From contig CAMVLO010000002.1 in assembly GCA_947168365.1 (NCBI GenBank), forward strand, positions 68,770 to 132,769: a stretch of 64,000 nucleotides of DNA. The letters run 5' to 3'. Positions 30,427 to 47,800 of this stretch are shown here, piece after piece. Each line of letters opens with the position of its first letter. The first letter of the stretch is position 1. Under the pieces are notes generated by a model. The model saw nothing but the letters and a program-made list of their open reading frames with translations, was not told where the DNA came from and searched no databases. Source of the stretch: an uncultured Bacteroidales bacterium. Lineage in GTDB: Bacteria; Bacteroidota; Bacteroidia; Bacteroidales; UBA3824. A program made the position numbers and the translations under genes.

Positions 30427-30476
30427 AATTGCGTATTCGCCGAAAAAATGTCATCTTTGTCAAAATATCAGTTTTT

Positions 30477-31565
30477 ATGTATTTGCACAAAAAAAATAAT
30501 TGGCAGAATTTCAGGTACAACAACGATTTGATTGTTAGTATTTTGGGTAAAATAAGACTTCTTCAGGGTATTTTGTTAGGTAAGTCTTGCCGTCTTGGAT
30601 TCAATGTCCAAAATGAAAAATATCTTGAAACATTATCTCTCGAAATTATCAAATCGTCAGAGATAGAGGGTGAAAGCCTTAATATCCAACAAGTACGCTC
30701 GTCTTTAGCGCGTCGTCTTGGTATTAATGCTGCGGGGCTTGTGCCGTCAGCAAGGTACATCGACGGCATTGTAGAGATGAATCTTGATGCCACGCGCAAT
30801 TACAATCAACCGCTCACTGATGAAAGGCTTTTCGGTTGGCACAACGTACTATTTCCGACCGGTAGGAGCGGACTTTACAAAATTGAAGTTGGCAGATACC
30901 GTACGCGCGAGATGGAAGTAGTGTCAGAGCCGATGGGCATGGAGACTGTTCATTATCAAGCTCCTTCGCCGGATAGAGTTCCCGAAGAAATGCAAAAGTT
31001 TTTAACGTGGTTCAATGCGGGCAATGATATGGATTTAGTCTTGAAAGCTGCAATAGCGCATTTTTGGTTTGTAACTATTCATCCTTTTGACGATGGCAAC
31101 GGGCGTATTGCTCGTGCGTTGACGGATATGTTGCTCGCCAAATCAGAGGATTCTCCGTTGAGGTTTTACAGTGTTTCCAACGAAATAAATGCGGATCGCA
31201 ACGGTTATTACAGTATCCTCGAAGATACTGAGACCGGTGACGGCGATATTACATATTGGTTGCAATGGTTTCTTGAAAGTCTCAGAAAATCAATTGATAA
31301 GTCTATAGTTACGATTGATAAGGTTTTGGATAAAACTGATTTTTTTGCAAAAATATCTTCGCTTGCTGTTAATCAGCGTCAAAAGAAAATCCTGACGATG
31401 CTTTTGGACGGATTTGACGGCAAACTCACCACTGCCAAATATGCGAAAATAAACAAATGTTCGCAAGATACGGCATTGAATGATATCAAATTCCTTATTG
31501 AAAATGGAATTCTCGAAAAGACCGCTGACAAAGGGAAAAATACAGGATATCAACTTTTAAATTAA
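30477..31565 (+). CDS. Fic family protein (DUF4172-type N-terminus)
   Basis: Core Fic motif HPFDDGNGRIARAL. C-terminal winged-helix-like tail. I prefer the ATG at 30477 (MYLHKKNNWQNF...). Confidence 0.85.
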   Translation: MYLHKKNNWQNFRYNNDLIVSILGKIRLLQGILLGKSCRLGFNVQNEKYLETLSLEIIKSSEIEGESLNIQQVRSSLARRLGINAAGLVPSARYIDGIVEMNLDATRNYNQPLTDERLFGWHNVLFPTGRSGLYKIEVGRYRTREMEVVSEPMGMETVHYQAPSPDRVPEEMQKFLTWFNAGNDMDLVLKAAIAHFWFVTIHPFDDGNGRIARALTDMLLAKSEDSPLRFYSVSNEINADRNGYYSILEDTETGDGDITYWLQWFLESLRKSIDKSIVTIDKVLDKTDFFAKISSLAVNQRQKKILTMLLDGFDGKLTTAKYAKINKCSQDTALNDIKFLIENGILEKTADKGKNTGYQLLN

Positions 31566-32717
31566 AAATCCGCCGATGAGGATATCGTCCATTTGGACGT
31601 AACCTCCTTTCCATTTGTCAATAAAATCAGAGAGTTGCTGTTTTTGATATTCTCCGGAAGTATTTTGCTTACAAAGCTCGGTCAAAAGCTCTTTCAATCG
31701 TCCGTAAGTTACCTTTCGTTTGGTTGTTCCGCTGAATTGGTCAGCAAATCCGTCTGAAAACATGTATAAGTAATCGCCTTTTTGGGCTTGAATTGTTACT
31801 GTTTCAAAAGTTTTGGGGCGCGGATGTTGACCAATCGGATTTTTTATGCCTTTGTATTCTGTGAGTTCGCCGTTTCTTACGATGTAAAGTGGATTGTTTG
31901 CTCCGGAAAACTTCAGTTCCAAAGTGTCAAGATTTAGTAGACAGAATGCCATATCCATTCCGTCTTTTGGCTCGTCTTCGCATTGATGTTGACTCAATGC
32001 ATTGATAATAAAGCCTCTCAAGTTTTCAAGAATTTCCGACGGTGAGGATTTTTCTGTGATATTGCTGCATACTTCATTAAGAAAAGTCACGCCCAAAAGA
32101 CTCATGAACGAACCCGGCACACCGTGTCCTGTACAATCCGCAATTGTGAATGCAATAATATTTCCGCAGCGTTTCATCCAATAAAAATCGCCTGAAACTA
32201 TTTCTCTTGGTCGCCAAAACAGAAAATAGTCGGTGAAAGCATTTTTCAGAATTTCTGTTGGCGGCAAAACTGCGAGTTGTATTCTTTGTGCGTACTTAAT
32301 ACTGTCTGTTACAGCGCGATGCTTGCGTTCTATTTCGTTTTTTAGGATATTGATATGTTCCTTTTCTTTTTGCATTTGAATGCTCATCGACCAAAGCCGC
32401 TTGTTTTTCTCGGAAAATTCTATTTTTTCTTGTTCAAGTTTCTTTTGTTCGAGTAAAATTGTTGCTGCATCTACATTTACTTGAGTGGAAATTTGGGTTT
32501 GTTTTTCTTCCTGTTTAGTGTTTTTAAGATGTTCATAAAGAGCATTTTGACGGTCGTAAGCATCTTTGTAAATGCGTATTTGTTGTTTCATACGGTTTTC
32601 GGTGCGACGTGCTGATTTTTGCGCAATATTTCTGTTACGAAAATACAGCACAATTGCTATCACTCCAAAAAGTAATGCTACAACTATCAGGATAATATCT
32701 AATGTATTGAGTGTCAA
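31557..32717 (-). CDS. Membrane-anchored PP2C-family (SpoIIE/RsbU-like) serine phosphatase with coiled coil
   Basis: N-terminal TM (LDIILIVVALLFGVIAIVLYF), a coiled-coil stretch, then KYAQRIQLAVLP, SGDFYW, ADCTGHGVPG and FSDGFADQ. The TTG start overlaps the upstream stop (TTGA). Confidence 0.85.
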   Translation of the reverse strand: MTLNTLDIILIVVALLFGVIAIVLYFRNRNIAQKSARRTENRMKQQIRIYKDAYDRQNALYEHLKNTKQEEKQTQISTQVNVDAATILLEQKKLEQEKIEFSEKNKRLWSMSIQMQKEKEHINILKNEIERKHRAVTDSIKYAQRIQLAVLPPTEILKNAFTDYFLFWRPREIVSGDFYWMKRCGNIIAFTIADCTGHGVPGSFMSLLGVTFLNEVCSNITEKSSPSEILENLRGFIINALSQHQCEDEPKDGMDMAFCLLNLDTLELKFSGANNPLYIVRNGELTEYKGIKNPIGQHPRPKTFETVTIQAQKGDYLYMFSDGFADQFSGTTKRKVTYGRLKELLTELCKQNTSGEYQKQQLSDFIDKWKGGYVQMDDILIGGFLI

Positions 32718-34057
32718 TTTATCTGTAGATTTTCTAAGTTTGGTACATTATAAACATAAACCACAGAACCTACTGTAGTATTTGTTGAGGTTGATAAGTT
32801 GGTAACTGTTTGATTTGTTACTTTTGTTAAGTAAACATTGTAACCCGAATCGGAATCTTTGAATGTCGCAAAACATGCTACTCCGTCATCGTAATCCATT
32901 GTAACATTTGTTACCAATTCTCCGTCTTCAGTCAATATCAAAATCGAACCTGACAAACTGCTCAATCTTGATAACAAATCGTTTAAGGAATTGATTGATG
33001 ACGAGCCGGAAATATTTACGCCGGAAAAACATATATTACCGTTCAATTCTGTGACGTTCAGATATATAGATTCAGCGATGTAAGATTCATCGTTTCGATA
33101 TATTTCGTTGCCTTCGCTGTCTGTTTTTATTATTATGCTTTGACTGCTGCTACTTGCCGAAATATATGCGTAATCGCCTATTCGTGAACATGTTAAAGGA
33201 TAATAATCTATTTGTGAGGATTTAATTTCGTTGCCGTTTAAATCAAATATTTTCAAATAGTATTGAGAGTTTTCGTTTTCGTAATAGATGAAAACATTGT
33301 TGTTGACCGAAATTACCTCCAAAATATTGATAGTTTCAGAAAATTGCAATTCATTTTCGCTAACCCATTCGCCGTTGCTGTTGATATATCGGAGCGTAAG
33401 ATTGTACGAACTTGTTTGCATCATTCCTTGGTTCGGAGTTTGAAGAATCATGGCGTAACCTCCATTGTCCAAAGGAGTTCCGTTGGTTGGAACTCTGTTT
33501 GTATTATTTTTCTGATCCATCATATTTCCGCCTGCCATAGAAACTATGCTGTCGATTTGGAAAATTTTGTTGCAATCTTTGTCAAATTTTATTACCGCAA
33601 AATATGTACGTCCGAACGAATTTGCTGAATAATATTCGATGAAAAATTCGTCATTTACATTTTTTGTGATTTTTCCCGAGGAGATGTCAACTTTCGTATG
33701 ATTAGTTTCTTCCGGGCTGGGATTATTATTGTTATTATTTTCTTTGTTGTCCTCTTGGTTAGATAAATTGCCGTTGTTTGGATTGAATTGATTATTTGTT
33801 TCTAAATTCCACGACATCGTAAATTCTGTGGAAGTGGTTTCTGCTTTTTTGTCGATTTTTACAAATTTATACGTTGTAGTGTCGCCTTCGGAAGTTACAG
33901 TAATTATCGAACCGTCAGAGCATGCCACGGGCGTATAAATCGAAGCATTTTCAATCGATTTTATTGGTGAATCTTCGTAGTCGGAATACACGGGTTCTTT
34001 CTGACATGATACTGATAACAAGGCAATTGCCGATAATATGTTGATTGTATTTTTCAT
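32714..34057 (-). CDS. Lipoprotein with repeated beta-propeller-like strands and an Asn-rich linker
   Basis: LLSVSCQKE lipobox. Recurrent D/N-x-x-G-N/E-h motifs (INSNGEWV, IFDLNGNEI, KTDSEGNEIY, LTEDGELV). Low-complexity segment NKENNNNNNPSPEE. Confidence 0.7.
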   Translation of the reverse strand: MKNTINILSAIALLSVSCQKEPVYSDYEDSPIKSIENASIYTPVACSDGSIITVTSEGDTTTYKFVKIDKKAETTSTEFTMSWNLETNNQFNPNNGNLSNQEDNKENNNNNNPSPEETNHTKVDISSGKITKNVNDEFFIEYYSANSFGRTYFAVIKFDKDCNKIFQIDSIVSMAGGNMMDQKNNTNRVPTNGTPLDNGGYAMILQTPNQGMMQTSSYNLTLRYINSNGEWVSENELQFSETINILEVISVNNNVFIYYENENSQYYLKIFDLNGNEIKSSQIDYYPLTCSRIGDYAYISASSSSQSIIIKTDSEGNEIYRNDESYIAESIYLNVTELNGNICFSGVNISGSSSINSLNDLLSRLSSLSGSILILTEDGELVTNVTMDYDDGVACFATFKDSDSGYNVYLTKVTNQTVTNLSTSTNTTVGSVVYVYNVPNLENLQIN

Positions 34058-34079
34058 TGCTTTTATTTTCCTCCTTTTA

Positions 34080-35252
34080 TTAAAATCCGTATCCGTATTT
34101 AGCTTTTACCGAGTATCCGAATTTAAATTTGTAACCTACTCTTATATTGAAAGTTGCTAAGTGGATTGCGTCCGGTACAAACATCTTGTTGTAAAGCAAG
34201 TTGTGATTGTAATAATTGTACTCCGCATTGTTGAACGGGCGCAACATGTAAGAGAAACTTGCATCTGCGAAAAATGTATTTTGATTGAAATTGCGGTTGA
34301 TTCTCAATCCGCCGAAAACCGAACAGTTTATTCTGTTTTTGGTTTTCAGATCAATACTGTTGTCGCTTATTGTATTTTGTTGAGATTCACCGTATTCGTT
34401 GTAAGATTCGTATTTGGTTTTCAGCAAATAGTTTTGTTGGAATCCTGCATAAAATTCGGGAACTATTTTTTCTTTTCGGGTTGGATAAGTGATTGTTACA
34501 TATACCGGAACAGTCAGTAAATGAGATGATTCCTTATACACAAATTTGTAATCCAATTTCATTGAATTGTAATAAAAACTGTGATTTTCGGTTCTGGTAT
34601 ATTGCATAAAATTGTATTGCAATCCGGCAGCTACCGACACAAATTTTGTAATATAATACTGAAATCCTATTTCCGCTATAAAACCTTCAGTAGAAGAATA
34701 GTCGGGTTTGTTTTTGGAGTCTTCGTTGATAACATGTACAGTATCAATTATTACCATCGGTGTTGAGAGTCCGAAATTTATCCATGTTGCAAAACGCGGA
34801 AATGTGTAGAAATTTTTCTTCATTTCCTTAAAAGGCATCGGGTCGCTAACTTGTGTTTCGTAAAACGGATTTTTCTTTAGAAACAATTTCGTAACAGAAT
34901 CGGCTTCACGGTCAAAACCGGCTTCTTTGAGCGTTGATGCATAATATTTTAGAAATTCGGAATTTTCTTTGCTATTGAATTTTGTTTTGTTTAATGTTTT
35001 TGCTGTTTTAATCGCCTCGCTGTATTTTCCGGCATTGTACAACCTTTTGAAATTATACAAAAGAGTTTCGTTGCTGTTGTCTTGAGTGTTTTCTGCAAAT
35101 TCCGCAGTGCCGGTTTCTCCATCGGAATTCAGATTGTCAAAAAAATCTTTGAAATCTAAATCACTTGCGGTGGAATCCGGATTTTGTGCGCTCATTTTCA
35201 GCGACATCATCACAGCTATTATTGTTAATATTAATATTTTTGACGTCTTCAT
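34080..35252 (-). CDS. Outer-membrane beta-barrel protein with N-terminal helical (TPR-like) region
   Basis: Signal peptide ending MSAQ. Alternating-hydrophobic strands in the C-terminal two thirds, ending in aromatic ...KAKYGYGF. Confidence 0.6.
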   Translation of the reverse strand: MKTSKILILTIIAVMMSLKMSAQNPDSTASDLDFKDFFDNLNSDGETGTAEFAENTQDNSNETLLYNFKRLYNAGKYSEAIKTAKTLNKTKFNSKENSEFLKYYASTLKEAGFDREADSVTKLFLKKNPFYETQVSDPMPFKEMKKNFYTFPRFATWINFGLSTPMVIIDTVHVINEDSKNKPDYSSTEGFIAEIGFQYYITKFVSVAAGLQYNFMQYTRTENHSFYYNSMKLDYKFVYKESSHLLTVPVYVTITYPTRKEKIVPEFYAGFQQNYLLKTKYESYNEYGESQQNTISDNSIDLKTKNRINCSVFGGLRINRNFNQNTFFADASFSYMLRPFNNAEYNYYNHNLLYNKMFVPDAIHLATFNIRVGYKFKFGYSVKAKYGYGF

Positions 35253-35272
35253 ATTTTTTTTCTCTCTTTTTT

Positions 35273-38200
35273 TTACAATTCTTCTTTGGAGAATTCCTTT
35301 CCTAAAATCAGTTCTTTTTCTTCGGCTGAAAGCGGGTCCAGCTTTTGGTTGAATGTTTTTAATATTCTGGCGTAACTCTTAATATCTGTATTCCAAAAAC
35401 GAATCAATTTGTCTTCGGTAAGCGCAAAAATCATTCCTTTGGTATTGAAACTCATGTTTTTGACTTTGAATCCGTTGAGCGCGTGATCCTCAATATTCAG
35501 AATTTTGCTGTTTTCAATATCTTTGGTATCTATCAGCGAAATCCTTTTGTCGGCACTCGCTACTGCTAACAGTTGCGTATTCTTATCGTAAAACATATTT
35601 TCGATTTGAGAATGTGCGCAAACTTTGGTGCAGGTCTGTTTGTCGTTTTTGGTATTGAAAAATACTACATTTCCGTTTGAAACGCCGATTACAATCAGAT
35701 TTTTGTCGGGAATTGATGTCAGCGCAAATGCGTAGTTGCCCGGCGATTCGTAAATCGGTGTGGCTTCGCCCGTTTCGGGATTCCATTTCATAAGTTCGCT
35801 GGTGTGTGTTGCCAAATAGATATTGTTGTCAACAATACAGAATTCCGACACTTTGGATTGCGATGTAAATTCGTGTGACGGCTTTTCTTTGGGTTCGTAT
35901 GGATTCAATACCAAGATTTTGCCGTTGTTGAATGACAGTATGATATGTTTTTGGTCGCTTGTAAAAGTAGCGGCTGTTACATAATCTTTTATTGTTTTCA
36001 GTTGTGTTGATTTTTTATTATCGATGTCAACAAAATAAATGGATTTGTCTTTCATCGAAACCAACGCGTATTTGTCAGAAAGTAATATCGCTTTCAGTAC
36101 CGGTGCTTTGTTTTCGTTGACATTAAATGTCTTAATCAATTTTGCCTTGTTGGCTCCGAGTGCGTAAGTGCTGATTTGTGCATCATTTGTTATCAGACAT
36201 ATTTGATTGGCATTATTGATTTTGAATGTTGAGATATTTTTGGGAACATCTTTTAATATATTGTCGAAAACTTGTTGTTGTTCTATGGCGTAAAGCATTG
36301 CATCATAAAGTATTGCATCGTTGTTTCTGATATTGCGTTTTTCGCTGAGTTTGTATGCTGCCCAAGCAAGTTTCAGATTTAGTTCTTTGTCTTCGTATTG
36401 ATTTTTTGCATTCATAGCCAACATGTTGCAAAGTGTGATGTCATAAAGACGTTCCGAAGAATCTTTCGCCATTTTAGCATCTTTTTCACCTCTTTCGGCA
36501 CGCTCTTGAGCATCCTTTGCATTTCTCTCACCGGTTTCGGCACGCAAAAGGTTGGATAACGCTTGTTTTTCAGCTTTTTCGGCTCGTGAACGTTCTTCGT
36601 TGGCTTGTAAGAGTGCGCGTTCGGTAGCTTGTTGAGCAAGTCGGGCTTTTTGTTCTTCGTCGCGGGCATTTTGAGCGGCAATTTCTGCGGCTTCTTGCGC
36701 ATCATTGGCTTTTTGTCGCTCTGTTTCGGCTTCCAAACGTTTTTCTTCGGTTTTGGCTCTTTGTATTTCGGCAAGCTTTTGAGAATCTTCGGCTTTTGAC
36801 TTTTCTCTCATTGCCCAACCCGAAAACAAAAGCATTGTTACAATAAAGGCTATTGCGACAGCAATTATGGTTTTGAACTTACGCTTTTTAGCTTCTTCTT
36901 TTTCTAAAATTGCTTTTTTACTTGCCTCGATATAGTCAATACAATTTTCAAAATGAGTTGTTGCCTTTTCGATTTTTTCTTTTTCGGAAATTTTGCTGTT
37001 GTCGTACCTTGCAAGCCAATACGCATTGGGACGGCTTTTCTGATACCAATCGTTGAAATAGTTGTAAGAACCCGTAGGCAACAGATATTCTGCGCTTTGC
37101 TCGTGATGAAGCCAGCGTTTTACTTGTGCATCAAAATCATAAAAATCTTTTTGATTGTTTTCCATCTCGTAGCCCCACGATGCCAACATCTTCCAGTTAC
37201 GGATTAACGCCTCGTGAGTGATATCCAAAACAGTATCACCGCTAAGATATTGAGATTCAAAATTGTCCGGCTCGCTAAACGGGCGCAACAATGTGTTTTC
37301 GGGACTGCGGAATATATTGATAACGCCGCAAACTGTAGCGTTGTTAACATTGTCTTTGTTTATCATGCCCGTGATTTCGTCGAGAGTGCTGCGGTTTCTT
37401 ACAGGACGGTTGTTGTCTATTTTTACAAGACTTTTGAAAACCGTTTCAATAATTTGTTTACTCTCTTCGCGGGTGATATTCTTGGGAGCCCAACTTGCAT
37501 TCTGCTGAAAATGGTCGTAAGCCGATTCGTACAAAATTCCGGCGTGAGCGTTGAGAACATTGTTGAGGTCGGGCTTTTCAAAATACTTTTTCTCGTAATC
37601 GGGAAGTTTGGCAAACCATTGGTCAAAATCTTTTTGTTCTTCGTCGGAAAGTACATCTCTTGAAATTCCTGCAATTTTGGCAAGGTGCAACAAGTCAAGC
37701 TGTTTTTTGCCGTTGTCAGCCATTTTCCAAAGCAGATTGAGAGCGTGTTGAAGTACAGGAAGTTGGTCGGCACCGTCGTTGATATTATTTACAATTACTT
37801 CTGTAAGACGCGGCGATACACTTCCGCCCGCAAGTGTTGCAGGTTCTTCTATTACTTGACATATTTCCGTACGTTTTAGTTGAGGTACAAAAAACTGACT
37901 GTAGGCTATAAATTCAGGAAGATGTTTGAATACCGTACACTGACTTATAAAGTCACTACGCATTGTAAATGCCACATAGACAGGCAATTTTTGTGTAACA
38001 GCAATTCTTACGGTTTCCAAAAGAAGATTTATTGTAGTATAACATTCTTCGCTTGGGATTCCGTTGTTGAAATTATCTGAATTTGTAAAAACCTCTTCAA
38101 ATTGGTCGGCAATTATCAGAAGGTTTTTACCTCGATTAGCAGCGTCATCGCCTTCAGTTACATAAAAACCGTTCTTTTTGTACAAGTCAATTACAGAAGA

Positions 38201-38542
38201 AAATCCGTGGCTGAGTTCTTCAAGACAAGTATCATAATCAAGATCGGCATTTTGAGCAATAGACAGCGCAAGCGAAGCAAGAGGATTTCTCTGAGGTTTG
38301 AAATCTGCAATTATCCAGCTGTTGAAATCTGCCTTGAAAAATCCGGCTCTGATATACGGAACAACACCGGCATAAACCATCGATGATTTTCCGTCGCCGG
38401 AGGCTCCCGTGATGAAAACCATTTTGTTTTCTTCCAACAGTTTTACAATTTGACGTATATGTAAATCCCTGCCTTTGAAGAAAATCGATTCTTCTTCGGT
38501 AAAAGGTCTTAAACCCGGATATGGACAGATATTGGTTTTCAT
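35273..38542 (-). CDS. STAND (NLR-like) NTPase with internal TM helix, long charged coiled coil and C-terminal WD40-like beta-propeller
   Basis: CPYPGLRPFTEEESIFFKGRD, then ITGASGDGKSS (Walker A) and LLIIADQFEEVFT (Walker B). TM KFKTIIAVAIAFIVTMLLFSGWAM (about 36806-36880). E/A/K/R/Q-rich coiled coil (about 36440-36800). WD-like strands LLAVASADKRISLIDT and IFALTEDKLIRFWNT. Confidence 0.8.
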   Translation of the reverse strand: MKTNICPYPGLRPFTEEESIFFKGRDLHIRQIVKLLEENKMVFITGASGDGKSSMVYAGVVPYIRAGFFKADFNSWIIADFKPQRNPLASLALSIAQNADLDYDTCLEELSHGFSSVIDLYKKNGFYVTEGDDAANRGKNLLIIADQFEEVFTNSDNFNNGIPSEECYTTINLLLETVRIAVTQKLPVYVAFTMRSDFISQCTVFKHLPEFIAYSQFFVPQLKRTEICQVIEEPATLAGGSVSPRLTEVIVNNINDGADQLPVLQHALNLLWKMADNGKKQLDLLHLAKIAGISRDVLSDEEQKDFDQWFAKLPDYEKKYFEKPDLNNVLNAHAGILYESAYDHFQQNASWAPKNITREESKQIIETVFKSLVKIDNNRPVRNRSTLDEITGMINKDNVNNATVCGVINIFRSPENTLLRPFSEPDNFESQYLSGDTVLDITHEALIRNWKMLASWGYEMENNQKDFYDFDAQVKRWLHHEQSAEYLLPTGSYNYFNDWYQKSRPNAYWLARYDNSKISEKEKIEKATTHFENCIDYIEASKKAILEKEEAKKRKFKTIIAVAIAFIVTMLLFSGWAMREKSKAEDSQKLAEIQRAKTEEKRLEAETERQKANDAQEAAEIAAQNARDEEQKARLAQQATERALLQANEERSRAEKAEKQALSNLLRAETGERNAKDAQERAERGEKDAKMAKDSSERLYDITLCNMLAMNAKNQYEDKELNLKLAWAAYKLSEKRNIRNNDAILYDAMLYAIEQQQVFDNILKDVPKNISTFKINNANQICLITNDAQISTYALGANKAKLIKTFNVNENKAPVLKAILLSDKYALVSMKDKSIYFVDIDNKKSTQLKTIKDYVTAATFTSDQKHIILSFNNGKILVLNPYEPKEKPSHEFTSQSKVSEFCIVDNNIYLATHTSELMKWNPETGEATPIYESPGNYAFALTSIPDKNLIVIGVSNGNVVFFNTKNDKQTCTKVCAHSQIENMFYDKNTQLLAVASADKRISLIDTKDIENSKILNIEDHALNGFKVKNMSFNTKGMIFALTEDKLIRFWNTDIKSYARILKTFNQKLDPLSAEEKELILGKEFSKEEL

Positions 38543-39408
38543 AATGCCGTTTTTGCAGTTGTTTTGTCAAAAAATACTTTGATATCCAACGGTAAAAGGC
38601 TGATTTCGTGAATTATTGTTTCGATAATTCCGTCAAAAATTTTCAGTTCTTCTTCGTTGGCATGTGCGCTGTTGCCCACCAAAAAAATCGGAGTTTTGCC
38701 GGATTGACCACCGTTGTCTTTCCACACTTGTCTTGCAAACGATACCGCCCAATCGCCGGCATAATTATAATATATCACTCCAATTTTGCAGCCGGAGAGT
38801 TGATTTTTGATATATTCGGTATAATCGATATTGCTGTTCATAGATATTCCGAGAGTAGTTACAGTTTGAATATCTTCCAACATGTGGGAAATCTCTTCAG
38901 CTGTTTGCTTGTCTAAATCGTTGTAAATAAAAAAGATGTCTTTGTGTTGAATTTCTTGTTGAACTTCGGTACGGATATTCATAATCGTTCTGAGTTCTTC
39001 TACAAAAACAATCGCAGAAGTTTTGGACGAGTAAATAGTGTTTTCTACAATTTCGCGTCTGATATTGTTGATATACTTATTGTTGTCAGTAATCTGTCCC
39101 GACGGATTCCATACAAACATCTTGAAAGTTTTGCTTCTGAGATTTTTTGCCAATCGGTATTGTTTGCCGGCATTGCTGTTGAAACCTTTGCCTTGAGGGT
39201 CGTAAATATCTACGTTGCCCAATAGATGTATCGAACAATCTGATTGTTGCATCAATTGTATATCAGTATCCTCGTTGCCGGACGAGTTGAAAACCTTGAT
39301 TCCGGCTTTTCCCAAAATAATACATAGCTTATTTTTCGTTTCCGACATATCGTTAGAAACATCGGCAACAAATACTTTTATTTCATGTGTAAATAAGCTA
39401 ATATCCAT
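38539..39408 (-). CDS. Two-domain protein: DUF4062-like N-terminal domain plus TIR-like C-terminal domain
   Basis: N-terminus KVFVADVSNDMSETKNKL...SDCSIHLLGN follows the DUF4062 pattern. C-terminus DIFFIYNDLDKQTAEEISHML...IGVIYYNYAGDWA follows the TIR beta-A/alpha-A start. The stop overlaps the STAND gene start (ATGA). Confidence 0.55.
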   Translation of the reverse strand: MDISLFTHEIKVFVADVSNDMSETKNKLCIILGKAGIKVFNSSGNEDTDIQLMQQSDCSIHLLGNVDIYDPQGKGFNSNAGKQYRLAKNLRSKTFKMFVWNPSGQITDNNKYINNIRREIVENTIYSSKTSAIVFVEELRTIMNIRTEVQQEIQHKDIFFIYNDLDKQTAEEISHMLEDIQTVTTLGISMNSNIDYTEYIKNQLSGCKIGVIYYNYAGDWAVSFARQVWKDNGGQSGKTPIFLVGNSAHANEEELKIFDGIIETIIHEISLLPLDIKVFFDKTTAKTAL

Positions 39409-39461
39409 CTTTTGTTTTACTTTGTAATTGTTTTTACATGCATTAATGATACCATTTGACG

Positions 39462-39469
39462 CAAATTTA
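39462..39469 (-). promoter_or_regulatory. TAnnTTTG -7 box for the 39408-31557 operon
   Basis: The minus strand reads TAAATTTG, about 54 nt upstream of the ATG at 39408. Confidence 0.4.
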
Positions 39470-39601
39470 AGATTTTTTTTCTTAATCGAATCAAATAAAT
39501 TGCTAAAAAAAGTAAAAGGTTCGATTATTTGTGTAATTTTGTCCCGATTTTCTAATCAGAAACAATACACGTATTTTATTAATTTAACACAAATCACATC
39601 A

Positions 39602-39949
39602 ATGGAAAACAACGAACAAAACACCGTAAATATAGCCGGTGAGAACACTGCTAACGAGTTGGAAAACAAAGAACAGTCAATCGCAGTAAATGTAGATGAA
39701 GCACAACAAAAGATGTCACAAGCCGATATTGATAGAGAAATGAGACGAATGCAATACCAGGTAAAAAACGCCATAGCGGCACAAGGTGGAAAAGGAATTG
39801 TTATCGGTTTGCTTTTGATTATAGTTGGTGCAATTTTTACATTTACTTCAACTACAAAAATATATATCGGCGCATTTATAGTCGGCGGTATTTACATCGT
39901 GAAAGGTATTTATCATTTGATAAAAGCAGCACGAATTAAGATTAGATGA
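39602..39949 (+). CDS. Small membrane protein (two C-terminal TM helices)
   Basis: From ATG 39602: MENNEQNTVNIAG..., then GIVIGLLLIIVGAIFTF and IYIGAFIVGGIYIVKGIY. Confidence 0.55.
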   Translation: MENNEQNTVNIAGENTANELENKEQSIAVNVDEAQQKMSQADIDREMRRMQYQVKNAIAAQGGKGIVIGLLLIIVGAIFTFTSTTKIYIGAFIVGGIYIVKGIYHLIKAARIKIR

Positions 39950-40154: not shown

Positions 40155-40892
40155 TTAAGAATTTGTTACCTCCGTTTTTACCTCGGTGTCAGTAGACACT
40201 TCGGTAGTAGAGTTTTTGTTTAATCCCTTCGATTTGTCAAACAATTCGTTGATAATCAATGCAAACTCGTTGCATGACTTAGGAGCTATATAAGCATTAT
40301 ATGCGTTGACATAATCTGCAAATTCGCCCCATGCTTTGTTCAAAGCATCGCGTGCGCCCGGTTTGTAACCCTTATTCGCTTGGTAATAATTACCTCTTAA
40401 GTCGTATAAACTTTCGTGTTTATCCAACAAATTTGCTACTATTGACAATAAGATGTCAATACTAAGTGTTTTGAGAGCCGGTTTCCCAAGTTGATTAAAC
40501 TCGTTTAATTGTCGTTTAATTTTTTCAATTTTCTTAAACAAATTATTTCCTTTGAGAATGCCGTATTTGTCAACAATCTCTTTGGCTGTCTTTGCGAGAT
40601 CCGAAATTTGTGTTTCCGGATTATACACATTGGCAGTGATAATCTGTCTAATTGAATTAAAGACATTAAACATCTGTTTCCTCACCTCGGTAAGCTCTAC
40701 CGTATAAGGGTTGGTTCTCTGTTTTTCAACAGCTGTTACCAACAAATTGTAGTTTTCAGTGAAATTTTTAGCATATTCACTGTTTCGTACTTCTTCAGGC
40801 AACTTTCCCAAAGTTGCGAGTGCTCGTGCCGCGAAGTACAGCGTTTCTAGGTTCGAAAACCTAACGAGACTTTTTAAACAAAAGTAGTTCAT
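40155..40892 (-). CDS. Hypothetical all-helical protein (possibly the Bacteroidota-specific DUF6261-like family; from memory only)
   Basis: 245-aa ORF with an ATG start and its own terminator. Segment VRNSEYAKNF resembles the LRNxEHxxF motif of that family. Thr/Glu/Val-rich tail. Confidence 0.6.
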   Translation of the reverse strand: MNYFCLKSLVRFSNLETLYFAARALATLGKLPEEVRNSEYAKNFTENYNLLVTAVEKQRTNPYTVELTEVRKQMFNVFNSIRQIITANVYNPETQISDLAKTAKEIVDKYGILKGNNLFKKIEKIKRQLNEFNQLGKPALKTLSIDILLSIVANLLDKHESLYDLRGNYYQANKGYKPGARDALNKAWGEFADYVNAYNAYIAPKSCNEFALIINELFDKSKGLNKNSTTEVSTDTEVKTEVTNS

Positions 40893-41239: not shown

Positions 41240-41765
41240 GTTTGAAAAATTCTTGGAATTCTTGAAAATTGTATCGCTACGAGAAATGAAAATTCTTGGA
41301 ATTCTTGAAAATTGTATCGCTACAAGAAATGAAATTACCGGAAATTATTAATCTTGTATCGCTACAAGAAATGAAATTACCGGAAATTATTAATCTTGTA
41401 TCGCTACAAGAAATGAAATTACCGGAAATTATTAATCTTGTATCGCTACAAGAAATGAAATTACCGAAAATTATTAATCTTGTATAGCTACAAGAAATGA
41501 AATTACCGGAAATTATTAATCTTGTATCGCTACAAGAAATGAAATTACCGAAAATTATTAATCTTGTATCGTTACAATAAAGGAAATTACCGGAAATTAT
41601 TAATCTTGTATCGCTACAATAAAGGAAATTTCCGGAAATTATTAATCTTGTATCGCTACAATAAAGGAATTTTCTGAAAATTATTAATCTTGTCACGCGA
41701 CAAGAAAGGAAATTATCGGGAATTATGAATCTTGTTGCGACAATATTTTGTATTTTCTGACATCT
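41240..41765. repeat. Tandem array of 12 units, 42-bp period, two dyad motifs per unit
   Basis: The GTATCGCTAC core recurs at 41271, 41314, 41356, 41398, 41440, 41482, 41524, 41566, 41608, 41650, 41692 and 41734. Consensus unit: CTTGTATCGCTACAAGAAATGAAATTACCGGAAATTATTAAT. Confidence 0.9.
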
Positions 41766-41905
41766 TGTCTTATTATATTCTGTCAAAAAGTTAGTCGATT
41801 GTCATTTTTTGTGACAGTTTGTCATTAAAATTTATTCGGTACGGGGTTTGATTGTTGGCATTCGGAAATTTTAATTTAAGTAAAACATCTAAAACTATAT
41901 AAAAT

Positions 41906-43972
41906 ATGGCAACGACAGGTAAAATTGGAGTTACAAGTGAGAACATCTTCCCTGTAATCAAAAAATTCTTGTATTCAGAACAGGAAATCTTTTTAAGAGA
42001 ATTGGTTTCCAACGCAGTAGATGCTACTACAAAGGTAAAAGCATTGGCAAGAAAAGGCGATCTCAAGGAAGACCTTGGCGATTTGACAGTAAGAGTGAAT
42101 GTTGACAAAGATAAAAAGACTATCACTATTTCGGATCACGGTATCGGTATGACTTCTGAGGAGGTTGACAAATATATCAATCAGATTGCATTCTCATCAG
42201 CAGGCGACTTCCTTGAAAAATACAAGGATTCTATTGATGCTATTATCGGTCATTTCGGACTCGGATTCTACTCTGCATTTATGGTTTCAGAAAAGGTTGA
42301 CATCATCACAAAGAGTTGGCAGCCTGATTCCAAAGCTGTAAAATGGAGTTGCGACGGCAGCCCTGAGTATCAGATGGAAGAAACCGAAAAGGCTGAACGT
42401 GGTACTGATATTATTCTTCATATCGACAACGATTCGGCAGAGTATCTCGAAGATGCCAAGATTGAAGGTTTGCTCAAGAAATATTGTATGTTCCTTCCTG
42501 TTCCTATTGCTTTTGGCAAGATTAAGGAATGGAAAGAAGATAAATATGTTGATACCGACAAAGATAAGGTTATCAATGATACTGAACCGCTTTGGACTAA
42601 AAAACCGTCGGAACTCAAGGATGAGGATTACAAGAATTTCTACAAGAAACTTTATCCTTCTACTTTTGAAGATCCGTTGTTTAATATCCATTTGAATGTA
42701 GATTATCCGTTTACACTTACAGGTATTTTGTATTTCCCGAAAATCCGTACTAATTTGGAAATTCAGAAAAACAAAATCCAGTTGTATTGCAACCAAGTAT
42801 ATGTTACAGACAATGTAGAAGGTATTGTGCCTGAGTTCTTAACATTGCTTCATGGTGTATTGGATTCTCCGGATATTCCTTTGAATGTATCAAGAAGTTA
42901 TTTGCAGTCGGATTCTAATGTAAAGAAAATCAGCAACCATATTACAAAGAAAGTTGCTGACAAGCTTACAGATATTTTCAAGAATCAGCGCGAAGATTTG
43001 GAAAAGAAATGGGACGATCTCCGTTTGTTCATTCAATACGGTATGCTTACAAACGACAAGTTCTATGAGTCAGCCAAAGATTTCTTCTTGTACAAAAATA
43101 CCGAAGACAAATATTTTACTTTGGATGAATACAAGAATATCATCAAAGCAAACCAAACTGACAAAAACAATACTATAATAATACTTTACGCTACCAACAA
43201 GGAAGATCAGTATTCATTTATTTCGGCAGCCAAAGAAAAAGGTTACGATGTATTGATTTTGGATTCAGCATTTGATTCACATTTTATCAACCAGGTAGAA
43301 CAAAAGAATTCAGATGTAAGATTTATGCGTGTAGATTCTGATACATTGGACAAACTTATCAGAAAAGAAGACGCTCCAAAATCTACATTGACCGATACCG
43401 AAAAATCAGATTTGTCAGCAGTATTCAATTCACAAACACCAAAGAATTCCAACAAGAATTTCACAGTAGAATTTGATACCTTGTCGGCAGACGATATGCC
43501 TGTATTGATTACCCAGAGCGAATTTATGCGTCGTATGAAAGATATGGGTAAGATGGGCGGTCCAGAATCAAGTTTCTACAACAATCTTCCTGACAATCTC
43601 AATCTTGTTGTCAACGAAAACCATCCGATAGTAAAATCAATAATTGCGGATGCAAAATCGGCAACAGCAGCTGATGTTACAAAATTGGAAGACGAGTTGA
43701 AACCTTTGAAATCTGATTTGGAAAGTCTTGAAAAGCTTACCAAAGACAAGAAAGAGGAAGAAATCAGTACCGAAGAGAAAACCAAGAAAGAGGAATTACA
43801 GAAGAAAATCTCAGACTTGGAATCAAAACGCAAAGAGGTATTTGAGAAATATGCCGGCGGCAACAAGTTGGTTAAACAATTGATAGACTTGGCATTGTTG
43901 GCAAACAACATGCTTAGAGGCGAAGATCTTACCAAATTTGTAAAACGTTCGGTAGAATTTATTGGAAAATAA
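41906..43972 (+). CDS. htpG: Molecular chaperone HtpG (Hsp90)
   Basis: IFLRELVSNAVDA, SDHGIGMT, IGHFGLGFYSAFMV and LNVSRSYLQ are Hsp90 signature blocks. 688 aa. Confidence 0.95.
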   Translation: MATTGKIGVTSENIFPVIKKFLYSEQEIFLRELVSNAVDATTKVKALARKGDLKEDLGDLTVRVNVDKDKKTITISDHGIGMTSEEVDKYINQIAFSSAGDFLEKYKDSIDAIIGHFGLGFYSAFMVSEKVDIITKSWQPDSKAVKWSCDGSPEYQMEETEKAERGTDIILHIDNDSAEYLEDAKIEGLLKKYCMFLPVPIAFGKIKEWKEDKYVDTDKDKVINDTEPLWTKKPSELKDEDYKNFYKKLYPSTFEDPLFNIHLNVDYPFTLTGILYFPKIRTNLEIQKNKIQLYCNQVYVTDNVEGIVPEFLTLLHGVLDSPDIPLNVSRSYLQSDSNVKKISNHITKKVADKLTDIFKNQREDLEKKWDDLRLFIQYGMLTNDKFYESAKDFFLYKNTEDKYFTLDEYKNIIKANQTDKNNTIIILYATNKEDQYSFISAAKEKGYDVLILDSAFDSHFINQVEQKNSDVRFMRVDSDTLDKLIRKEDAPKSTLTDTEKSDLSAVFNSQTPKNSNKNFTVEFDTLSADDMPVLITQSEFMRRMKDMGKMGGPESSFYNNLPDNLNLVVNENHPIVKSIIADAKSATAADVTKLEDELKPLKSDLESLEKLTKDKKEEEISTEEKTKKEELQKKISDLESKRKEVFEKYAGGNKLVKQLIDLALLANNMLRGEDLTKFVKRSVEFIGK

Positions 43973-44831: not shown

Positions 44832-47800
44832 GTGAAAGAGAAGTTTGTACAACTGTTTGTGAAATTTCAGTTTCTGGTATATGCAACAATACTGTGCATA
44901 TCTGCAACTGTATTGGAATCGTATCTCAGTGGAGTTACCTCGGCGAGAATAGATTCCGACAGGGTGGAGAATGTATTGCATATAAAAGAAACAAAACTTG
45001 ACAGCATTCTGACGTTTTTTCAAAATGAGGTAGAGAAAGGAGAAAACTTTCATAAAGAAAATTCGATATGGCTGTTTAAACAAAATCTTGATTATCTCAA
45101 AGACGAAGGTTTTACGGTATTTGTCTACGAGAAAGATACATTGAGATTTTGGACAGATAATGTTGTACCCGCAGGCAGAATATTTTCGCAGTCGTTGCTC
45201 AATAATACATTTGCTAATCTTGACAATGCTTGGTACGAAATCCGCACCGTAATCAACGGCGACTATCGTTATGTCGGATTAATTTTTCTGAAGAATAAGT
45301 ATAATCTCAAAAACAAATATCTTAAAAACGAATTTTTACCCGATTTTAATCACGGTCCTGAGATTCAAATTTCTATGGTACCGGTAAGTTTCGGTATGGA
45401 TATCCGTGACAAAGACGGTAAATATGTTTTTACGCTTGTACCTACAAGTACTTACGACATGGAGGGCGAGAAATTTAATTCCGTCGGAATACTTTATTTC
45501 CTGTCGTTGGTGATGATGTTGATTTTTATTTATACTGTAATTTGCCGGCTTGCCAAGGAGGACGGTAATTACCTGAAAATAATATCAATAATAATAGGTG
45601 TAGTGGTAGTAAGAACATTGATGGCGATATTCAAGCTGCCGCCGTCGATATATTCTTTAAACTTTTTTGATCCGGAATTCTTTTTAGGACCGGGAATATT
45701 TTCAAGGTTTGGTGATTTTATTATCAATTCGGTAGTAATATTAGCAGTAGTAGTTTATATCTTTAAACTTACAGAATACAACAAAGTAGGCGATTATTTG
45801 AAAACTGCTCCGAAGAAAAATCTGTATACGATTTGGGGATTTTCGTTGACAGTTTACTTTTTGTTTTTCGGATACTTGTATTCTGTTACAAAACAGCTTA
45901 TAGGTCACAGCAAAATATTGTTTCAGCTTACAAATATCATAGAGCTTGATATTTACAGTATATCCGGCATTATGATTTTGATAATACTGACAGCTGCACT
46001 TATATATACATCAGTAAAGATGACATCTTATTTTGATTATTCTTTGATAAAAAATCTGAATAAGACATTATTAATAAGTGCCGGAGTCGGAGTAGTATTA
46101 TTTATAGTATCATCGTTGATATTCAGTCTGCAAACAGCAATAGCCTTGTTGTATGTATGTTTGATATTGGGTGCATCTATGATTATGCATTACAAAAATG
46201 CAGAAACAAGTGTCTACCGTTATATATTTATGGTATTTTTGAGTGCGGTATTTACATGTAATCTTATAAGTAATACCACAGAACAAAAAATCATAGAAGA
46301 AAGCAAAACATTGGTAACCTATCCGGCAGACGAGCGCGATCAAATTGCGGAACTTCTTTTGAGTGATATTTCTCAAAAGCTGCCTAACGATGAGGTAATT
46401 ACAGATTTCTTGAGAATTTCAGACACTCAACAGCGAGTTTCCAAACTTCGTGATTATATTCAGCATCAGTATTTCAACGAGTTTAGAAGCAAATATAATC
46501 TTAGTACCAAAGTTTTTAAATTAGAGCCCGGAGAATTGTTTGCCGATATAGATGATGATTTTGTAAAAGCCGTAGAGCAACACGGCAAGTCGGTAAATGC
46601 TACAGGTTTTTATTTTGTTGACAAAAATGACGGTACAATCAGTTACATGTGTCCGTTGAGATATGTAATCAGTCAACAGATATTTTATTTGTGTATTTCG
46701 TTGGATTCCAAACCGATACCTCAAGAATTGGGTTATCCGGAATTGTTGATGGATAATAGTGTAAAACCATCACCGATACGAGATTACAGTTACGCGAAGT
46801 ATTCACGCAGTCGCAAGATTTCTCAAAACGGAAATTATAATTACGATTTGACTGACGGTGTATATATTGCTGAAGTAGGGGAGGGGGATACCATCGCTAC
46901 TACCAAAACCGGCGATTATATTCATACAATTTATCGTAACGGCGAGAATACCATTGTGTTGTCGCATAGAAAATTATCAATATCTGATTTTGTAACACAA
47001 TTTGCGTATTTGTTTGTAACATATATTACTGTTTTGTTGATAGTATTGGTAATCAAGATGTTTCTTACAAACAATACAAATTACCGTTATCAAATAAAAA
47101 CGCGATTGATATTTTCGATAACAGGAATATTGATGTTGTCATTCATATTTATATGTATTGCAACGGCATATATCAATTTCCATCGTTTCAAGGAAGACAA
47201 CATGAAGAGTATCGACGAAAAGGTTAAGAGTGTTTACATGGAATTGGAACATACCTGCGGCGATACTACAAGTTTTTCAACGATGTGGAATCCAAATACA
47301 AATAGTGTGATGGATGAATATTTGGTACAATTGTCACATATATTTTTCATTGATATCAATTTGTATGGACCACACGGACAATTGATAGCAAGTTCACGCC
47401 CGGAAATATTTAGACAGGGACTTATCAGTACCCGTATGAATACTACCGTTTTACGACAATTTGTATTAGGAAACAAGTCAAATATAATTCAAGACGAGAA
47501 AATCGGACAAATGCAGTATGCATCAGCCTATATTCCGTTTTACAATTATAAAGACAATTTGATGGGTTACATCAATTTGCCGTATTTTACAAAGCCTGAC
47601 GTTTTTAAACGTGAGCTTAGCAATTTGATAGTTTCAATTATCAATCTGTATGTTGTTTTGATGATGCTAAGTATTGTAGTTGCAGTATTTGTATCAGAAC
47701 GTATCGTTCAGCCAATCAAGTTGATACAGCACAAGATGGAGAAAATAGAGCTTGGCAAACAGCACGAGAAAATCGAGTATGACCGCAAAGACGAGTTGGG

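Follow-up and report, generated by a model that had tools for sequence, protein, structure and literature searches.

A conserved Bacteroidales operon centred on a predicted membrane-spanning STAND NTPase with a stalk-borne WD40 propeller

Proteins of the STAND/NLR class are usually viewed as cytosolic switches in which a repeat domain senses the ligand and holds the NTPase inactive by direct contact. What becomes of this design when a hydrophobic helix and a long charged helix come to lie between the NTPase and the repeats? The question is raised by a STAND gene of an uncultured Bacteroidales bacterium (UBA3824). The gene is located in the window analysed here, i.e. the whole stretch of 64,000 nt between positions 68,770 and 132,769 of the forward strand of contig CAMVLO010000002.1. 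It belongs to a set of five closely packed genes on the minus strand (31557-39408), with open reading frames (ORFs) of 289, 1089, 390, 447 and 386 amino acids (aa). The genes are given here in the 5' to 3' direction of that strand, the parts of the STAND protein being listed after its gene.

38539..39408, minus strand: TIR-like tandem protein, 289 aa (AlphaFold2, Foldseek and family hidden Markov model).
35273..38542, minus strand: STAND gene, 1089 aa, intact (nSTAND1 NTPase, helical module, transmembrane helix, stalk and WD40 propeller).
37652..38524, minus strand: nSTAND1 NTPase domain, residues 7-297 (PF20703 at E=1.5e-64; Walker A and B motifs).
36872..37651, minus strand: helical module, residues 298-557 (AlphaFold2 secondary structure and flank charges).
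36809..36871, minus strand: single transmembrane helix, residues 558-578, predicted N-in/C-out (hydropathy, Hessa sum, conservation and positive-inside bias).
36407..36808, minus strand: helical stalk, residues 579-712, ~134 aa, predicted periplasmic (alanine periodicity, fixed length and AlphaFold2 helix).
35378..36265, minus strand: seven-bladed WD40 beta-propeller, residues ~760-1055, predicted periplasmic (Pfam, AlphaFold2 and Foldseek).
34080..35252, minus strand: outer-membrane protein, 390 aa (signal peptide, C-terminal motif and Pfam matches in homologues).
32714..34057, minus strand: lipoprotein, 447 aa (lipobox Cys18).
31557..32717, minus strand: PP2C phosphatase, 386 aa (PF07228, NCBIfam SiaA and PDB 6k4e).

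The best explanation of the data is, in our view, a conserved five-component system that spans the cell envelope and is centred on a bitopic STAND NTPase. Its central element is the transmembrane (TM) helix. An original prediction, made from the sequence of the window, had proposed that a TM helix and a charged helical stretch separate the NTPase from the propeller, and this holds: the ORF is intact, and only one Kyte-Doolittle 19-residue window of the STAND protein exceeds 1.6, the threshold used here to call a TM helix. The hydropathy maximum (2.42) falls on residues 559-577, IIAVAIAFIVTMLLFSGWA, flanked by KKRKFK upstream and by REKSKAEDSQK downstream, and the simple Hessa sum of the helix is -2.0 kcal/mol (mean of the homologues, -2.4 kcal/mol). 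The bounds needed correction. The hydrophobic segment had been drawn from 36806 to 36880, charged flanks included, and is reduced to 36809-36871; the charged stretch, put at ~120 aa (36440-36800), does follow the TM helix and is larger, ~134 aa at 36407-36808.

The helix is not a peculiarity of one gene. Among the candidates scored, 3234 are related to the 1089-aa protein at E<=1e-10; the best 120 of them are Bacteroidales proteins of ~1080-1095 aa from metagenome-assembled genomes (MAGs), with 39-100% identity. Of 117 full-length homologues spanning this range of identity, 116 have a single TM helix at the place where the window protein has it, and the odd one, at 1.58, lies just below the threshold. 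When the cytoplasmic module (residues 1-550) was searched against a library of 1.84 billion representatives, 17,206 matches were obtained at E<=1e-10. Among the best 150 of these, 114 are full-length (N-terminally extended ones and three atypical proteins being left out), and 113 of the 114 carry a single TM helix directly after the cytoplasmic module. The helix is kept in position and in hydrophobicity, not in sequence (36% identity), which is typical of membrane anchors. As judged from these alignments, the TM helix is the rule in a large Bacteroidota branch; the word "insertion", which the original prediction had used, does not suit a feature that is standard there. Three architectures can be distinguished: (a), the type of the window, with a TM helix, a charged stalk of 130-190 aa and a WD40 propeller; (b), in which the TM helix is followed not by a stalk but by ~750 aa that match nothing in Pfam, e.g. 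WP_151076774.1 of Hymenobacter busanensis; and (c), which is type (a) extended by ~300 aa at the N-terminus. Remoter nSTAND1 proteins also possess a TM helix, for example one of nSTAND1-TM-TPR organization (P0379).

On which side of the membrane does the propeller lie? The NTPase, which lacks a signal peptide and depends on nucleotide, should be cytoplasmic; given a single span, the C-terminal half would then be outside. This N-in/C-out topology is further indicated by the following. (i), the homologues show a positive-inside bias: the 15 residues upstream of the TM helix contain on average 4.84 Lys and Arg (net charge +3.0), against 2.72 (net -0.5) in the 15 residues downstream. (ii), some relatives with the NTPase-TM-stalk-WD40 order end in a LysM domain (P0336, residues 1458-1500, E=2e-13; P0307 and P0382, annotated by NCBI as LysM-containing); these make up two clusters of the N-terminally extended type (c), and LysM, a peptidoglycan-binding domain, is an extracytoplasmic marker. 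(iii), partner proteins of the operon are exported (see below). (iv), the parts evolve at rates that match their predicted compartments. Over 37 complete systems, mean identity is 69% for the NTPase, 57% for the helical module and 50% for the PP2C phosphatase, compared with 36% for the TM helix, 36% for the stalk, 31% for the propeller, 29% for the outer-membrane protein (OMP) and 19% for the lipoprotein; the parts predicted to be cytoplasmic are thus slow-evolving and those assigned to the periplasm or outer membrane fast-evolving. We consider it highly probable that the NTPase is cytoplasmic and that stalk and propeller are periplasmic, in line with the original placing of the propeller on the periplasmic side. 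A role of the TM helix as a pore-forming effector was also considered, and was ruled out by its place between NTPase and sensor and by the exported partner proteins.

The cytoplasmic half identifies the kind of switch. PF20703 (nSTAND1) matches residues 7-297 with 219.4 bits against a cut-off of 27.1. The Walker A (GASGDGKSS, 46-54) and Walker B (LLIIADQFEE, 141-150) motifs are intact, and the columns G46-S54, D146, E149 and E150 are invariant in a 46-sequence alignment. Among the best 25 of 27 Pfam families matched at E<=0.01, the only ones of NTPase type are nSTAND1, nSTAND3 and AAA_16, neither NACHT (PF05729) nor NB-ARC (PF00931) being present. When the PDB was searched with the sequence of the NTPase module (550 aa), nothing came up beyond insignificant P-loop matches to UvrA. 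At its C-terminal end the helical module has a juxtamembrane helix (520-557), which runs on into the TM helix, and the K/R cluster KKRKFK. The three-part STAND organization is thus present: an N-terminal TIR-like module, encoded here by a separate gene, the NTPase with helical module 298-557, and the WD40 domain 760-1055. On profile, motifs and architecture we assign the protein to the nSTAND1 clade; it is not a NACHT or NB-ARC NLR and is NLR-like in architecture only. The phrase "transmembrane NLR-like receptor", under which it had been described, is therefore supported as to topology and too wide as to the clade, and its last word must be read as interpretation. The propeller itself is modelled with confidence. 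More than 20 WD40-type propeller profiles of Pfam match residues ~770-1070 (E from 1e-16 to 1e-4), AlphaFold2 predicts seven blades and 27 strands with a predicted local distance difference test score (pLDDT) above 90, and the model resembles RACK1 and WDR61 in Foldseek (TM-score 0.76-0.81). A short conserved helical tail (residues 1056-1089) follows it.

Between membrane and propeller stands the stalk, which starts directly after the TM helix and is rich in Glu, Lys, Arg, Gln and Ala up to about residue 712. AlphaFold2, run with 46 homologues, predicts one unbroken helix from residue 520 to 712, running through the TM segment. In the 46-sequence alignment, Ala is found in at least 60% of the sequences at positions 577, 584, 591 ... 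703, i.e. at every seventh residue over ~19 heptads, with only 640 shifted. In the heptad, Ala makes up 80% of register 0; Ala, Gln, Glu or Asn occupy register 3, and charged residues fill the rest. Peaks of the periodogram fall at 3.5 and 7.0 residues, and this alanine periodicity lies 13 standard deviations above shuffled sequences; distant relatives with 40-57% identity in the NTPase module display the same periodicity (z=7-16 versus shuffles). The concern that the segment might be a local artefact, raised together with the original prediction, is dispelled by this persistence and by the near-constant TM helix. Length is as constrained as composition: columns 575-712 hold exactly 138 residues in 40 of the 46 sequences and 131 or 145 in the others, the indels being of 7, of 14 or of a compensating 9+5. 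The alignment thus indicates selection on both the length and the helical phase of the stalk, and this points to a rigid spacer or a signalling helix. The continuous 3.5/7 periodicity and the whole-heptad indels are those of a coiled coil or heptad repeat, classical knobs-into-holes packing not being implied. As a straight helix, 138 residues measure ~20 nm, which is comparable to the width of the Gram-negative periplasm. If the STAND protein oligomerises, its TM anchors would impose a parallel arrangement of the stalks. An antiparallel hairpin was considered as well and was ruled out by the continuous heptad register without a conserved turn and by the single AlphaFold2 helix.

The genes around the STAND gene reinforce this organization. 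The stop codon of the 289-aa gene overlaps the STAND start codon (ATGA) and the TTG start of the PP2C gene overlaps the stop of the lipoprotein gene, and these two overlaps (genes 1/2 and 4/5) fit a single operon. The claim that a lipoprotein and an outer-membrane barrel are co-encoded with the STAND protein stands, on a lipobox in the one and a signal peptide with a C-terminal aromatic motif in the other. The 390-aa OMP starts with a signal peptide (..MSA|Q) and ends in KYGYGF; between them lie a TPR-like helical region on the N-terminal side, predicted to be periplasmic, and a beta-barrel. The signal peptide and the aromatic terminus, usually KYGYG[YFH], recur in the homologues inspected (45 of 48 listed), the export signal always and the terminus in most. 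The window's own OMP has no Pfam match; OMP_b-brl_2 (PF13568) matches 10 of 25 homologues (best E=2.5e-8), and TPR matches are weak. The 447-aa lipoprotein has the lipobox ..LSVSC18, with Cys18 invariant, and at the homologous loci inspected the gene following the OMP gene always starts with a signal peptide and Cys. The lipoprotein sequence evolves very fast (the 19% mean identity given above), and Pfam gave only scattered sub-threshold beta-propeller hints on 26 homologues.

The last gene encodes a phosphatase. The 386-aa protein starts with a TM helix (residues 8-26; maximal 19-residue hydropathy 3.26), followed by a K/R cluster, a conserved helical coiled-coil linker and a catalytic domain predicted to be cytoplasmic. 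It matches PF07228 (6.9e-17; 62.5 bits against a cut-off of 25), NCBIfam SiaA (3.4e-45) and PDB 6k4e (4.7e-28). Its metal-binding motifs SGDFYW, DCTGHG, DG and DD are conserved in at least 90% of sequences, as are D177, D194, G197-H198-G199, D252-G253, D322-G323 and D377-D378. By its sequence it is an inner-membrane-anchored Ser/Thr phosphatase of the SpoIIE/RsbU/SiaA type with intact catalytic motifs, and coiled-coil linkers are a general activation device of RsbU-type PP2Cs (PMC12143880).

The first gene of the operon is more difficult to place. AlphaFold2 models the 289-aa protein with a pLDDT of 90 as two alpha/beta domains of flavodoxin fold. In Foldseek, the single domains match bacterial TIR domains (3h16, 4c7m; TMt 0.54-0.60) and receiver domains, all of these matches being weak; matches of the whole chain were discarded as meaningless two-domain Rossmann-like alignments (TM-score 0.2-0.3). 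Domain 1 is related to DUF4062 (PF13271): with the threshold relaxed to a permissive E<=1, 20 of the 40 members of the family match. Among members scanned individually only P0233, the best match (1.7e-10), exceeds the gathering score (41.4 bits against 24.7), the others being sub-threshold at E~0.02. A TIR_2 match in the family reaches 3e-5. The window's own protein has no DUF4062 match in Pfam, and a profile of the family found nothing in the PDB. More telling is a comparison with the fused relatives: the family hidden Markov model matches the N-terminal extensions of P0307 (1.7e-44), P0312 (9e-38), P0336 (4e-24) and four further proteins more weakly. Since these are the extensions of the type (c) relatives, the 289-aa gene can be regarded as a detached N-terminal STAND module, functionally linked to the STAND protein because it is fused to it in other Bacteroidota. 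The full order, as reconstructed from these sequences, is TIR-like, NTPase, TM-stalk and WD40, the 289-aa protein being, on its model, a cytoplasmic tandem of two TIR-like (DUF4062-related) domains. DUF4062 ("NIR") is a TIR-like NADase with a catalytic Glu, located at E98-E108 in characterised TIR-like NADases; its carriers include Avs2, further defence systems and human TEP1, and NWD1, NWD2 and NPHP3 were inactive as NADases in the same study (bioRxiv 10.64898/2026.09.04.749371; PMC13174449). In the 289-aa family, helix alphaC of both domains (residues 78-90 and 217-231), where the TIR/DUF4062 catalytic Glu sits, has no conserved acidic residue, a provisional statement since the equivalence of positions was judged without structural superposition; the invariant E137 lies in a later helix. 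NADase activity of the protein is doubtful on these grounds.

How constant is the system? We sampled 69 STAND genes at loci from GTDB species representatives and MAG contigs. In 52 of the 57 systems with enough flank, a PP2C gene is found no more than 3.3 kb downstream of the STAND gene; in 36 of these 57 the same distance covers an OMP gene, which is followed by a lipoprotein gene. A TIR-like gene is the immediate upstream neighbour in 47 of 63 cases. The genes come in three orders: TIR-like, STAND, OMP, lipoprotein, PP2C, as in the window and also in a clade of 39% identity; TIR-like, STAND, PP2C, OMP, lipoprotein; and TIR-like, STAND, PP2C. Rumen and hindgut MAGs contain 2-5 paralogous systems each, some in tandem (five in CAMOSO01 and in JAGCVU01, four in JAFPZK01), and this expansion suggests an ecological importance of the system in the Bacteroidales of these habitats. 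The neighbours of the STAND loci are housekeeping genes (ileS/lspA, the dcw cluster, efp), and the fused LysM relative stands alone between gyrB and cell-wall enzymes (GH3/beta-lactamase, M23-LysM, NlpC/P60). None of the five operon proteins has a match in PADLOC-DB v2 (E<=0.01), so that the locus cannot be assigned to a known defence system. Database names of the relatives are only "hypothetical protein" or "WD40 repeat protein"; as to named or cultured cluster members, there are only "hypothetical protein" entries of Bacteroidota MAGs and one protein of Hymenobacter busanensis, of the stalk-less class.

What could such a system do? With the propeller across the membrane from the NTPase, a fold-back of the Apaf-1 type would not take place, and regulation should instead act via the stalk, TM helix and juxtamembrane helix or via clustering. 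Signalling across the envelope, from outside to inside, appears to us its most likely function, the chances of the model as a whole being only a little better than even. Close to the outer membrane, the propeller would dock onto or survey the OMP-lipoprotein pair or some other ligand in the envelope. When the state of this ligand changes, the change would travel down a bundle of parallel stalks and TM helices, as a shift in register, a rotation or a clustering, until it reaches the juxtamembrane helix. NTP-dependent oligomerisation of the cytoplasmic modules would be triggered in this way. One output may run via the TIR-like adaptor module, and another may be the activation of the co-anchored RsbU/SiaA-type PP2C through its coiled-coil linker. 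The 2-5 diverged paralogous systems of a rumen Bacteroidales genome could then be parallel input channels differing in periplasmic specificity. A more specific version, which we rate as somewhat less likely than not, would make the protein a trans-envelope receptor of NLR type, with a WD40 sensor held just under the outer membrane on a phase-locked Ala-zipper stalk of ~20 nm and reading the barrel-lipoprotein pair, the cell surface or peptidoglycan. NTP-driven oligomerisation would lead to TIR-like and PP2C outputs, without autoinhibition of the nucleotide-binding module by the sensor and with several channels per genome. Such a protein would be a functional counterpart of Toll-like receptors and receptor kinases built on an NLR chassis.

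Several observations weigh against outside-in signalling or blunt its support. The data do not constrain the direction of signalling, and the operon contains no gene for a kinase, a STAS-type substrate or a transcription factor. About one third of the systems have no OMP and lipoprotein genes nearby, and the function of the propeller therefore does not depend on them universally. Although upstream Lys and Arg outnumber those downstream of the TM helix in 95 of 116 homologues, they do not in all. In the monomer model the pLDDT of the stalk is low (40-52), as one would expect of a helix that stands alone. In a mirror-tree comparison of divergence matrices, propeller and OMP correlate with r=0.92, but the helical module and the propeller correlate equally highly; phylogeny dominates and confounds the correlation, and an interaction between propeller and OMP was dropped as a conclusion from it. 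The want of an acidic residue in alphaC, noted above, counts here too, as it touches one of the two proposed outputs. One could go further and doubt the membrane span itself, taking the hydrophobic segment for a buried core helix, or for an assembly or frameshift artefact, in a protein wholly cytoplasmic like the ordinary STAND-WD40 proteins. WD40 propellers and the C-terminal tail motif are indeed common in cytosolic STANDs as well. However, 21 apolar residues between charge clusters, within a solitary helix of 190 residues that offers the modelled segment nothing to be buried against, and their conservation in more than 200 independent sequences from many assemblies, make this extremely improbable, as do the LysM fusions of relatives and the export of the operon partners.

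Two other readings keep the same topology. The protein might be a mechanical element acting from inside to outside, a strut in the manner of TolA or Lpp that ties the inner membrane to peptidoglycan and, via the OMP-lipoprotein pair, to the outer membrane, with the NTPase controlling assembly and disassembly. A stalk fixed at ~20 nm with indels of whole heptads only is what a strut would call for, its geometry of TM helix, long helix and globular domain resembles TolA, and the LysM domains of relatives, the cell-wall enzymes next to the fused relative and the housekeeping contexts (ileS/lspA, dcw cluster) agree with it. We nevertheless regard it as unlikely: fast-diverging paralogues in 2-5 copies per genome suit sensors better than a strut, the gene is tightly linked to those of a TIR-like module and of a PP2C phosphatase of signalling type, the established role of STAND NTPases is that of switches rather than motors, and a third of the systems do without the OMP and lipoprotein. 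Anti-phage defence would make equal use of a periplasmic propeller, which would detect some sign of an invader, for example peptidoglycan damage or phage tail or ejection proteins; oligomerisation of the STAND protein would then activate the TIR-like/DUF4062 module as a NADase and lead to abortive infection. The order DUF4062/TIR-like, STAND, WD40 is shared with Avs2-NIR, TEP1 and NWD1, DUF4062 domains are NADase effectors in defence, nSTAND1 was originally defined in predicted counter-invader systems, the expansion is lineage-specific with a fast-evolving sensor side, and a SLATT gene adjoins the Hymenobacter relative. To this must be opposed the absence of PADLOC matches for the five proteins, the alphaC helices of both TIR-like domains devoid of a conserved acidic residue, the single individually scanned family member (P0233) that attains the DUF4062 gathering score, loci set amid housekeeping genes instead of defence islands, and a near-universal PP2C partner that is untypical as an abortive-infection effector; we give this conflict role a low probability. 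The reading we favour thus remains that of a trans-envelope signalling system.

The components of this putative signalling system recall several known ones. Kaur, Iyer, Burroughs and Aravind (2021) defined nSTAND1 in predicted counter-invader systems, and the window-type architecture is not described there (PMC8195603). The nSTAND1-clade proteins with WD40 or TPR repeats (PF20703; PMC8195603), which are of Apaf-1/NLR type by architecture, share with the window protein the NTPase family, the tripartite logic and intact Walker motifs, whereas the TM helix and ~134-aa stalk of the latter set its propeller in another compartment and OMP, lipoprotein and PP2C partners are added. Bacterial NACHT proteins with C-terminal TM regions were reported by Kibby et al. 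(bioRxiv 10.1101/2022.07.19.500537), and a NACHT-CLec target of a diversity-generating retroelement is predicted to be periplasmic (PMC10907252). These too are STANDs with proposed membrane-embedded or periplasmic sensing, an idea mentioned there in passing and not analysed, but they belong to the NACHT clade, have several TM helices or a CLec domain, and possess no single-pass anchor, heptad stalk, WD40 domain or dedicated envelope partners. Our literature searches on nSTAND1, on transmembrane or periplasmic STAND-WD40 proteins and on bacterial transmembrane NLRs returned no description of an nSTAND1-TM-stalk-WD40 protein, of a heptad-quantised stalk or of an OMP/lipoprotein/PP2C operon, only passing remarks on TM-containing NACHT proteins. 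Membrane-embedded or periplasmic STAND sensing is thus anticipated in passing in the literature.

TolA of the Tol-Pal system combines an inner-membrane TM anchor, a long, charged, Ala-rich periplasmic helix and a C-terminal globular domain that meets outer-membrane partners, including the beta-propeller TolB and the lipoprotein Pal. Its likeness to the STAND protein is one of geometry only. TolA lacks a cytoplasmic NTPase and draws its energy from TolQR and the proton-motive force, whereas in the window system the propeller belongs to the anchored protein itself; Pfam and NCBIfam gave no match to the TolA family, none on the stalk in particular, and the operon has no TolQR-like genes. PknD of M. 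tuberculosis (kinase-TM-beta-propeller) and Toll-like receptors (leucine-rich repeats-TM-TIR) likewise couple a cytoplasmic signalling module through one TM helix to an extracytoplasmic repeat or propeller sensor, the TIR-like cytoplasmic module being a further resemblance to Toll-like receptors. In the window system, by contrast, the transducer is a STAND NTPase and not a kinase or a bare TIR domain, a long rigid stalk is interposed, and there is no homology. As in the DUF4062-STAND fusions (Avs2-NIR, TEP1, NWD1/2, NPHP3), a DUF4062-related domain, here domain 1 of the 289-aa protein, takes the N-terminal effector place of a STAND-WD40 protein, being fused in relatives; the window module differs in being a tandem of two domains, encoded by a separate gene and without a conserved alphaC Glu. 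The operon PP2C shares with RsbU/SiaA-type enzymes the SiaA match, the metal-binding motifs and the helical linker, but has only a TM anchor before the linker, with no HAMP, RsbT-binding or receiver domain (PMC12143880; 6k4e). The system pairs such a phosphatase with a STAND NTPase, its presumed activator, a pairing not found in literature searches.

In the family of the window, repeat domain and NTPase would be placed across a membrane, ~20 nm apart, and thousands of Bacteroidota sequences share the arrangement. If the topology is true, activation must follow another principle than direct contact: the signal is either transmitted through a bundle of helices or arises when a ligand clusters the protein, as happens with receptor kinases and Toll-like receptors. 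The repertoire of STAND switches would thereby be widened. The family is also a genetically compact candidate for signalling from the outer membrane to the cytoplasm in Bacteroidota without TonB-dependent transducers or anti-sigma factors.

Some loci show further features. Tandem arrays of two or three complete STAND-OMP-lipoprotein-PP2C units are found on JAFXUC010000045, JAFPZK010000053 and JAGCVU010000265 (loci L005, L007 and L049/L050). Their internal units have no TIR-like gene of their own, and one TIR-like protein might serve several STAND paralogues. In Hymenobacter busanensis (CP047647.1, locus L080), the relative of class (b), 1413 aa long, shows translational coupling with the gene before it, which encodes 526 aa and has no Pfam match; the adjoining SLATT-domain gene lies on the opposite strand (regions noted, L080 5421-7001 and 11243-12172).

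Around the operon of the window, a DUF4172-Fic/DOC gene (30429-31565, plus strand) converges on the 3' end of the PP2C gene with a 9-nt overlap; at other loci no link of the Fic/DOC gene with the STAND operon was seen. Immediately upstream and divergent, a small ORF (39428-39949, plus strand) encodes two C-terminal hydrophobic helices (19-residue hydropathy 2.44 and 1.71), its true start being probably an internal Met (MENNEQ...). A DUF6261 gene follows (40155-40892, minus strand) and is also found upstream at another locus (L001, 922-1701). The htpG gene (HSP90; 41906-43972, plus strand), a few kb from the STAND gene, is likewise present (L081, 14370-16112) near a distantly related fused TIR-like-STAND-WD40-LysM gene of a Bacteroidia MAG, and the recurrence of htpG and DUF6261 near STAND loci may be residual synteny. 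Between the DUF6261 gene and htpG lies a 42-bp tandem repeat (41269-41735; 11.1 copies, 91% match), which gives rise to a spurious repetitive ORF of 169 aa (41277-41786, minus strand); an Rfam scan of the entire window returned no match. Finally, the gene at 44832-48554 (plus strand), 6 kb away from the operon, encodes a multi-pass membrane protein of 1240 aa, the C-terminal end of which looks, by eye from the translation, like a histidine kinase.

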